DNA of 36,427 nt from an uncultured Clostridia bacterium (GCA_947632745.1 CANRQH010000002.1:1-36427); one strand, 5' to 3'. Numbered from the stretch's first letter, positions 2,464-2,659 are shown. Numbers and translations are program-made. Notes: a model not told the origin generated them from the sequence alone.

Positions 2464-2659
2464 AGCCTCTGTCTTTGAAATAATAACTTTTTTTATAAAG
2501 AAACTTTGTCCTTTGCTTTTTTGCAGAAATTTTAATCTTTTATTTGGCACCCTTCCACGGCAAGCGTGAACTCTTTCCAAATAAAAGAAAAAAATTTCTA
2601 GCTACAAAAGCACTCCCGCGTTCTTTATAAAAAAAGTTATTATTTCAAAGACAAAGGCT
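2464..2659. repeat. Long intergenic palindrome A with a GC-rich core homologous to the element at 12116-12303
   Basis: The 39-nt arms 2464-2502 and 2621-2659 are reverse complements with 1 mismatch. The core 2503-2620 contains GCAGAAATT, GGCACCCTTCCACGGCAAGCGTGAACTCTTTCC, AATTTCTAGC and GCACTCC. These blocks are shared, in reverse complement, with 12151-12268. Confidence 0.75.

Follow-up and report, generated by a model that had tools for sequence, protein, structure and literature searches.

Two long palindromes, A and B, lie within a stretch of 36,427 nt of rabbit gut metagenome DNA (27% G+C; the window, by which we mean the whole stretch analysed), and they raise the question of why a conserved core should recur in opposite orientation between arms that look specific to each locus and yet stay self-complementary. 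The sequence-only reading of this DNA considered the pattern unusual for a MITE and suggestive of selection for the hairpin itself, be it a structured RNA, a cruciform or recombination site, or the product of a palindrome-generating insertion mechanism. The analysis presented here indicates that A and B belong to a family of small palindromic mobile repeats, apparently undescribed, from low-GC uncultured gut Clostridia. The features to which the text refers are the following:

2464..2659, plus strand: A, whole palindrome, with the core motif GGCACCC... on the plus strand; without counterpart at the orthologous site of L118 and L138-L140
2464..2473, no strand: outer left stem of A, AGCCTCTGTC, a host hairpin and not the element; orthologous to AGTCTTTGCA of the empty site in L118 and L138-140
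2650..2659, no strand: outer right stem of A, GACAAAGGCT, a host hairpin and not the element; orthologous to the partner half of the empty site (…TGCACAGGCT, in spoIIP-to-ytvI direction, L118 and L138-140)
2474..2649, plus strand: element proper of A, ~176 nt, at the hairpin apex, common to the window and L115; with arms of its own, TTTGAAATAATAAC... / ...GTTATTATTTCAAA
2546..2578, plus strand: apical module of A, GGCACCCTTCCACG - loop GCAAG - CGTGAACTCTTTCC, a 4-bp stem beneath an 8x8 pyrimidine-rich bubble; most conserved part of the family
12108..12311, minus strand: B, whole palindrome, with the core motif on the minus strand; arms of 48 nt, 85% complementary; fold of -70 kcal/mol
12141..12278, minus strand: segment of B exactly reverse-complemented in L124 and in Logan contigs L125-127, with collinear flanks and outer arms
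12193..12225, minus strand: apical module of B, which reads on the plus strand GGAAAGAGTTCACG - GTAAC - CGTGGAAGGGTGCC (sequence, alignment, motif scan)
12323..12351, minus strand: sigma-70-like promoter TTGATT-17-TATAAT, 10/12 (consensus scan only); context, not part of the element
12097..12114, no strand: 9-nt tandem duplication, ATTTACAAC x2, abutting the left arm of B; single copy in L124

The two palindromes and their family

A repeat finder, alignment and folding all agree with the sequence-only reading in that A and B are long palindromes able to form hairpins, whose homologous cores face opposite ways, and all the sequence blocks it had listed as shared are present when A on the plus strand is aligned with B on the minus strand (82% column identity). 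The repeat finder placed the arms of A at 2464-2502 and 2621-2659 (39 nt, 97% complementary, 118 nt apart), those of B at 12108-12155 and 12264-12311 (48 nt, 85% complementary), and the inverted-repeat matches between both cores at 2527-2597 with 12174-12244 and at 2491-2544 with 12228-12281. As single strands, each of them folds into one long rod, with -81.6 kcal/mol for A (z -13.2) and -70.0 kcal/mol for B (z -12.1), and none of 200 shuffled sequences was as good in either case. The arms of A and B had been described as unrelated, which is true of their outer 20-27 nt; the homology, on the other hand, reaches ~12-15 nt into the inner part of each arm (TTTTATAAAGAAAC vs TTTTCATAAAAAGT).

The genomic context reported for both palindromes was borne out by ORF and domain analysis. 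A is located between an ORF with a SpoIIP domain (2667-3257, minus strand) and an AI-2E/YtvI-type gene (1409-2392, minus strand), and B between rlmN (11046-12074, minus strand) and a bactofilin-like gene (12415-13623, plus strand). The promoter-like site beside B, known from a consensus scan only, would read from 12351 to 12323 through B into rlmN. A search with the family profile (nhmmer) found these two copies and no others in the window. Regarding the neighbouring sequences, spoIIP (2667-3810) consists of two minus-strand ORFs that overlap (3202-3810 and 2667-3257), as it also does in L118, L119/L120 and L138-L140, and L122/L123 carry one 390-aa gene; the split is due to a conserved frameshift or else reflects two genuine genes. 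A 48-nt inverted repeat unrelated to the family (10864-10911 / 11012-11059, 75% complementary, 100 nt apart) lies between rlmN and a convergent MatE-like gene, and the end of the window (35617-36388) is occupied by a ~69-nt tandem-repeat array, with 7 staggered 289-nt matches of 60-74% identity, which probably encodes a repetitive protein.

Further copies exist, and a pattern scan and a profile search sampled at least about 100 of them in roughly 30 metagenome-assembled genomes (MAGs). The scan for the apical motif, done with one genome per species, gave at least 114 loci, and 95 among the matches listed correspond to MAGs of 24-33% G+C labelled as uncultured Clostridia, Clostridium or Eubacteriales, coming from rabbit, mouse, human and other guts. 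High-GC matches of the same scan were discarded as chance matches. Several MAGs (Lapin-016 bin76, Lapin-028 bin90, ABMPRH_46_2) contain a dozen or more loci each, and the profile search added copies with a variant apex, with up to 3 copies per 8-kb locus. All the carriers are MAGs, each of them examined as 8-kb pieces. Among the matches listed, 96 of 97 copies are intergenic and show no preferred orientation with respect to the flanking genes (++ 33, -- 23, +- 16, -+ 13). Copies range from 73 to ~470 nt and have no coding capacity.

A Pfam scan of 86 flanking ORFs revealed ordinary housekeeping families, and in these 8-kb genome pieces there was neither a transposase family among the top families nor a recombinase or parent IS among the flanking ORFs. 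Half-site searches for a split, autonomous version of the element gave chance matches only. In this regard, the sequence-only reading named a known IS or MITE with standard terminal inverted repeats and target duplications as the finding that would speak against it; no parent IS and no family-wide terminal repeat was seen. The whole window gave 0 matches to Rfam at the gathering threshold and only generic miRNA-hairpin noise at the E-value level; a viral contig scan and blastn against plasmids and phages gave no matches, and the searchable literature yielded no description of the core motif or of similar elements. By eye, the core recalls sigma-54 (-24 TGGCAC) and parS (TTCCACG..CGTGAA) sites, two candidates that were discarded, as neither the spacing nor the partner half-sites agree.

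The core comprises ~110-120 nt, is conserved across species, and is mounted on long inverted-repeat arms that differ between element lineages and vary greatly in length between copies. From the centre outwards, it is formed by a loop of 3-7 nt, a 4-bp stem, an 8x8 bubble, a helix of 11-13 bp, the AGAAATTCT/AGAATTTCT helix and a second bubble, followed by the arms. The 8x8 bubble confronts GGCACCCTT(C) with GAACNYTTTCC, and the second one, which is asymmetric and also conserved, confronts TTCGTTCAAG-like with TTTCAATTCAC-like sequences. Both sides of both bubbles are pyrimidine-rich on one strand, and therefore purine-rich on the other. The alignment was gathered with the exact apical pattern, so that those 19 bases are invariant in part through the way the sequences were selected; the true variability of the apex is shown by the variant cores of the profile search, in which the apical stem changes from CACG/CGTG to CAAA/TTTG and thus covaries. 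Conservation of the arm tips is confined to recent sublineages, such as AAATAAAATAT in Lapin-028 bin90, and the tips change from one lineage to another; genome-specific subfamilies have near-identical inner sequence.

Several other observations concern these repeats and their surroundings. The assembler word depth over 12116-12307 in runs X1-X3 is 70-330, compared to 7-9 in unique flanks, which indicates a very high abundance of the family in the rabbit gut metagenome concerned. Contigs of other samples end inside the element (L117, L125-L129, L132, L133). In L001, two head-to-head copies 295 bp apart are found at 1385-1703, and the orthologous L059 has one chimeric copy, with its left half from one L001 copy and its right half from the other, a pattern that suggests recombination between copies. 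A second repeat of ~40 nt, TAGGAAACACTATGAAACTTTAATTTTGCAATTCTAAGTG, abuts the element in L114, L064, L078, L104, L108, L053 and L022 (Lapin-028 bin90), either on one side or inverted on the other and sometimes on both, with a TATAAT-like box just upstream. A separate GC-rich motif, GTAGGGGCACCGTTTG...GGCACCACTGTGCCC, is common to two MAGs (L063, minus strand, near 194, and L084, minus strand, near 4475).

Covariation of the core and probable exchange between arms

In an alignment of 88 sequences, three helices of the core (the apical 4-bp stem, the 11-13-bp stem and the AGAAATTCT/AGAATTTCT stem) covary strongly. Cells are paired in 96% of the cases, double-change cells amount to 219 compared to 56 ± 6 in shuffles (0/500 shuffles reached the observed value), and sliding the partner columns brings pairing down to only 31-57%. 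Both further copies and covariation, without which the sequence-only reading would have lost its basis, were hence found.

The arms offer a closer view of how complementarity is kept. L006 and L047 are orthologous copies from two species, with ~85% identity in the coding DNA next to them. Their cores are near identical, with two differences, both of them compensated. The arms have diverged to ~70% identity and are nevertheless perfectly complementary within each copy (35/35 and 33/33), with a symmetric 3-nt indel in both arms. At this locus, the element lies between a 6S RNA gene (L006 1224-1415, minus strand, and the orthologous L047 region; Rfam RF00013, 81.9 bits) and a convergent protein gene, and its arms resemble a bidirectional terminator (AAAAAGCAAAG...CTTTGCTTTT). 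Among 32 disjoint pairs of related copies, we counted 63 compensated double changes, versus ~5 expected as estimated from the observed per-site divergence, and 12 uncompensated ones. Moreover, copies within single genomes share an identical inner 100 nt and differ in small hypervariable patches, always with compensation. Altogether, the compensated changes and the symmetric indel indicate that arm complementarity is actively maintained. Such homogenisation is only partial, since one-sided arm changes (154) outnumber the compensated ones (63) in the same 32 pairs.

One alternative is a functional structured RNA family, either cis-regulatory or small RNAs, whose stems were selected for folding and whose bubbles bound a protein or ligand. 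The strong covariation and the conserved internal loops would fit such an RNA, as would the purine-rich strands of both bubbles on one of the strands, which could form G·A pairs, and the position of B downstream of a promoter-like site reading into rlmN. Contigs of a gut metatranscriptome also cover the L089 copy, so some transcription through copies is likely; this coverage looks like read-through from neighbouring genes, and its depth of 3-5 is one at which contaminating DNA is possible. The substitutions, however, do not resemble those of a selected RNA. In the covarying helices, G-U occupies 8 of 1922 cells, versus ~90 other non-pairs; over the whole arms, mismatches of the G·T type (123) and of the A·C type (128) are symmetric, so that neither strand is favoured, and G·T arises from just 21 of the 154 one-sided changes between related copies. 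Arms that are perfect over 33-43 bp, with a symmetric indel in one pair, would be unusual for RNA selection, and the lack of Rfam matches gives no support either. The rarity of G-U, the equal mismatch types, the indifference to the orientation of neighbouring genes and the inversion of the B core between strains (see below) argue together against RNA under structural selection, one of the roles first proposed for these hairpins, and we consider this explanation unlikely.

The pattern in the arms points instead to copying from arm to arm at the DNA level. Recombination between inverted repeats and template switching of replication within a palindrome are established processes. A strong though partial compensation, symmetric indels, no preference for G·T and flipping of the centre are what arm copying would produce. 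In this line, the main argument for a function of the conserved asymmetric bubbles, which we infer, is that arm copying would erase them unless they were needed.

Mobility of the element and inversion of its centre

Comparison with empty sites in related strains, an approach already indicated by the sequence-only reading, revealed that A is absent from the orthologous site of L118, L138, L139 and L140, whose YtvI proteins are 96-97% identical to that of the window. The orthologous spoIIP-ytvI spacers, recovered through close homologues of the YtvI-like protein, measure 101 nt in these four strains and 274 nt in the window. The empty site reads ...TTTTAC AGTCTTTGCAT TTAAAAT ATGCACAGGCT ACAATATG... 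and forms an imperfect 11-bp hairpin, whereas the filled site of the window reads, in the same direction, ...GTTTAT AGCCTTTGTC (176 nt) GACAGAGGCT GAAATATTG...; the element proper of A is replaced in the four strains by a loop of 7-10 nt (TTAAAAT). A is also missing in farther relatives (81% and 74%) and in L119-L123, and contigs of three rabbit-gut runs (X5, X6 and X1) skip 298-328 nt at this place. These comparisons show A to be mobile DNA, a recent insertion that has taken the place of the loop in a host hairpin. Against the empty sites, no direct duplication can be read at the ends of A, where the sequence is AT-rich and also resembles the element tip.

These data also qualify the notion of locus-specific arms. 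In the 39-bp arm of A, the outer 10 bp (2464-2473 / 2650-2659) do belong to the locus, as a pre-existing host hairpin, while the remaining 29 bp were carried in by the element. Arms do travel with the element, since B and L112 (Lapin-022 bin12) have their whole arms in common at unrelated loci with unrelated neighbours, differing by a compensated C-G/T-A pair. A mechanism of insertion that generates palindromes, as once suggested, is not needed, because insertion at a hairpin apex together with sequence exchange between arms explains the pattern.

Other filled and empty pairs are L079/L009, L081/L006 and L053/L109. In L079/L009, the whole 195-nt palindrome is missing together with its unique outer stem, and the empty site retains only TTTTTATAAAAA. 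Insertion at an apex is demonstrated for A only and is not proven as a general rule. Survivorship could contribute to it, as a hairpin inserted at the tip of another one leaves the host structure intact. Outer stems in several other copies resemble host terminators (A-run, stem, T-run); a general targeting of canonical terminators was rejected, because the 8 nt downstream are not enriched in T (0.37 vs 0.37 upstream). At the L006 site orthologous to the L081 copy (~6130-6280), an unrelated palindrome with 20-bp arms, GGGACGTATTTTTCTCCCTA ... TAGGGAAAAAATACGTTTCC, replaces the element. A search for a close empty site through MurD of L029 found nearest relatives of 72% identity, which are not collinear.

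Could these hairpins be DNA elements domesticated by the host, such as binding sites for a nucleoid, replication or repair protein, or cruciforms, kept by selection at the host level and mobile only rarely or in the past? Such a role would agree with a core more conserved between species than the adjacent coding sequence, with the presence, in two species that share only 67% identity in SpoIIP, of a copy immediately downstream of spoIIP and oriented alike, and with flanking ORFs among which no mobilising gene was found. The gain of A within a cluster of strains with 96-97% identical YtvI is recent, however, the genome-specific subfamilies of near-identical inner sequence indicate recent bursts, and the copies are scattered over all kinds of intergenic region, all of which renders domestication improbable too.

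The core of B, on the other hand, turned out to be inverted between strains. In L124, the segment equivalent to 12141-12278 is the exact reverse complement of the window (138/138 nt), and the outer arms and flanks are the same (DNA flanks 93-96% and bactofilin-like protein 89% identical). The L124 state recurs in three independent Logan contigs (L125-127), and that of the window in the independent assembly L116. This flip is not an ambiguity of the assembler, since the perfect stretch of the arms covers only 25 nt and can be resolved at k=31. A second flipped pair, L002 and L083, shows a 118-nt centre 100% identical after reversal, with the qualification that it rests on assemblies crossing a longer perfect repeat (arms perfect over ~40-43 bp). 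Two other orthologous pairs have kept the orientation. The opposite orientation of A and B is probably incidental, given that the B core is inverted between strains. Alternatively, the same palindromic element could have inserted independently the other way round, or have been excised and then re-inserted in that sense; as the breakpoints fall inside identical arm sequence, arm exchange and re-insertion look the same.

The inversion of a segment between inverted repeats, exact at B and probable in L002/L083, recalls the programmed invertible switches, or invertons, in which a site-specific recombinase would flip the core to alter expression of the neighbours, here spread as a cassette. The conserved core could hold sites for the recombinase or for accessory proteins, and B sits in a divergent promoter region. 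For an inverton, nevertheless, the inverted repeats are the required place of crossover, and here they are the least conserved part of the family; the consensus scan detected no promoter-like site inside A or B, no recombinase was found among the flanking genes, and the two orientations have been seen only between strains, so that we regard this alternative as very unlikely. Lastly, a chance palindrome or an assembly artefact is effectively refuted: de Bruijn assemblers can go wrong at long perfect inverted repeats, as in a flipped A allele suggested in run X5 that we rejected as unreliable (a single k=31 contig across a 33-nt perfect repeat), but the fold z-scores of -12 to -13, the at least about 100 copies in independent assemblies from several studies, and the 25-nt perfect stretch of B, with each orientation in at least 2 independent assemblies, leave almost no room for it.

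A mobile palindromic repeat among known systems

The explanation that we prefer, which we hold as probable but far from certain, is that A and B are copies of a non-autonomous, MITE- or REPIN-like palindromic interspersed repeat whose core would work as a recognition module. The complementarity of the arms would be due mainly to the copying of one arm onto the other at the DNA level, through recombination or replication template switching within the palindrome, a process that would also flip the centre, and selection for an RNA fold would be a less likely cause. The invariant bubbles may withstand homogenisation out of necessity; most likely, they would be recognised by a mobilising enzyme that acts in trans on the extruded or single-stranded hairpin. 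If a long hairpin located in the leader of rlmN or in the 3' region of spoIIP had any effect on adjacent genes, it would be a by-product.

A bolder version of this scheme, which we consider a long shot, is a new class of hairpin-mobile DNA, in which a hairpin-specific enzyme would read the bubbles, extruded or single-stranded, and insert the element at the apices of other hairpins, the palindrome would flip its own centre and homogenise its arms, and the copies would behave as two-state switches. If so, a flip would swap a pyrimidine-rich for a purine-rich bubble on the transcribed strand, and each copy could be a heritable two-state switch acting on neighbouring transcripts. Much is known of the small palindromic repeats of Proteobacteria (REP/REPIN, ERIC, Correia) and little of those in the uncultured low-GC Clostridia, which are dominant in the gut of many animals. 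In the present family, a single element comes and goes between strains that are nearly identical, has an asymmetric centre that is exactly turned around between the arms, and carries arms that drift quickly and stay complementary without the G-U signature of RNA selection. In practical terms, such elements break short-read assemblies, inflate depth and can mimic structured RNAs in covariation screens, and if the core were the handle of a hairpin-specific enzyme, this enzyme would be of interest for the biology of DNA manipulation.

Which known systems resemble it? The REPIN/RAYT system shares short, non-autonomous, intergenic, high-copy long hairpins without an internal transposase, whose complementarity is preserved as copies diverge (PMC3116915, PMC2817692). 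REPINs differ in having two conserved REP arms with a GTAG/CGTC tag around a variable loop, whereas here the centre is conserved and the arms vary, and their hosts are mainly Proteobacteria and not Clostridia. The family alignments contain no conserved GTAG/CGTC tag like that at the foot of the 20-40 nt REP hairpin, and no RAYT-like gene was seen among the flanking ORFs of the 8-kb genome pieces. REP hairpins are themselves a target for IS1397/ISKpn1 and IS110-family elements, which insert into them. Insertion at a pre-existing palindromic unit is also what is observed for A, with the difference that those are autonomous IS with a transposase, and the inserting DNA is here a gene-less hairpin, located at the apex in one copy.

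ERIC/IRU, Correia (CREE) and bcr1 repeats, the last from the Bacillus cereus group, occur in size variants and are often co-transcribed with their neighbours. The likeness resides in their being imperfect intergenic palindromes of 100-170 bp conserved across related species (PMC3184786, PMC2229807 for the class). They have conserved terminal inverted repeats, and our termini vary; Correia and bcr1 also have defined target duplications, whereas none was seen here and an exact inversion of the centre is documented. Generic bacterial MITEs are small, multi-copy, non-coding and polymorphic for presence, as this family is with its copy numbers and sizes, and no terminal inverted repeats shared with a parent IS were found across it.

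Other parallels refer to processes more than to repeats. Correction of quasipalindromes by template switching and gene conversion between arms, both known from the E. coli literature, copy changes to the other arm and can invert the spacer; they are processes and not an element family, and in our case they are deduced from the substitution pattern. Invertons likewise have a segment flanked by inverted repeats and found in both orientations, but their repeats hold conserved crossover sites, a promoter lies inside and a dedicated recombinase serves them. None of these features was found here; in particular, the consensus scan gave no sigma-70-like promoter in 2464-2659 or 12108-12311. The attC sites of integrons and attP(+) of the CTX phage function as folded single-strand hairpins with conserved unpaired bubbles and variable stems, and suggest a way in which the conserved bubbles might be recognised. 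Their difference lies in the conserved part, apical here rather than basal, and in the lack of a neighbouring integrase. Moreover, no RYYYAAC/GTTRRRY boxes were found in the family alignments, and the copies are scattered singly and form no cassette array. Comparable readers of hairpins are the Y1/HUH transposases (IS200/IS605, REP hairpins), the integrases acting on attC and XerCD on the CTX attP.

Since no tag, terminal repeats or duplication were seen, we file the element as a small palindromic interspersed repeat outside the named families. It works most like REPINs and the ERIC- and Correia-type repeats, but the marks that define each of them were not seen, and the family is in consequence new, but a variant of the known small palindromic repeats.
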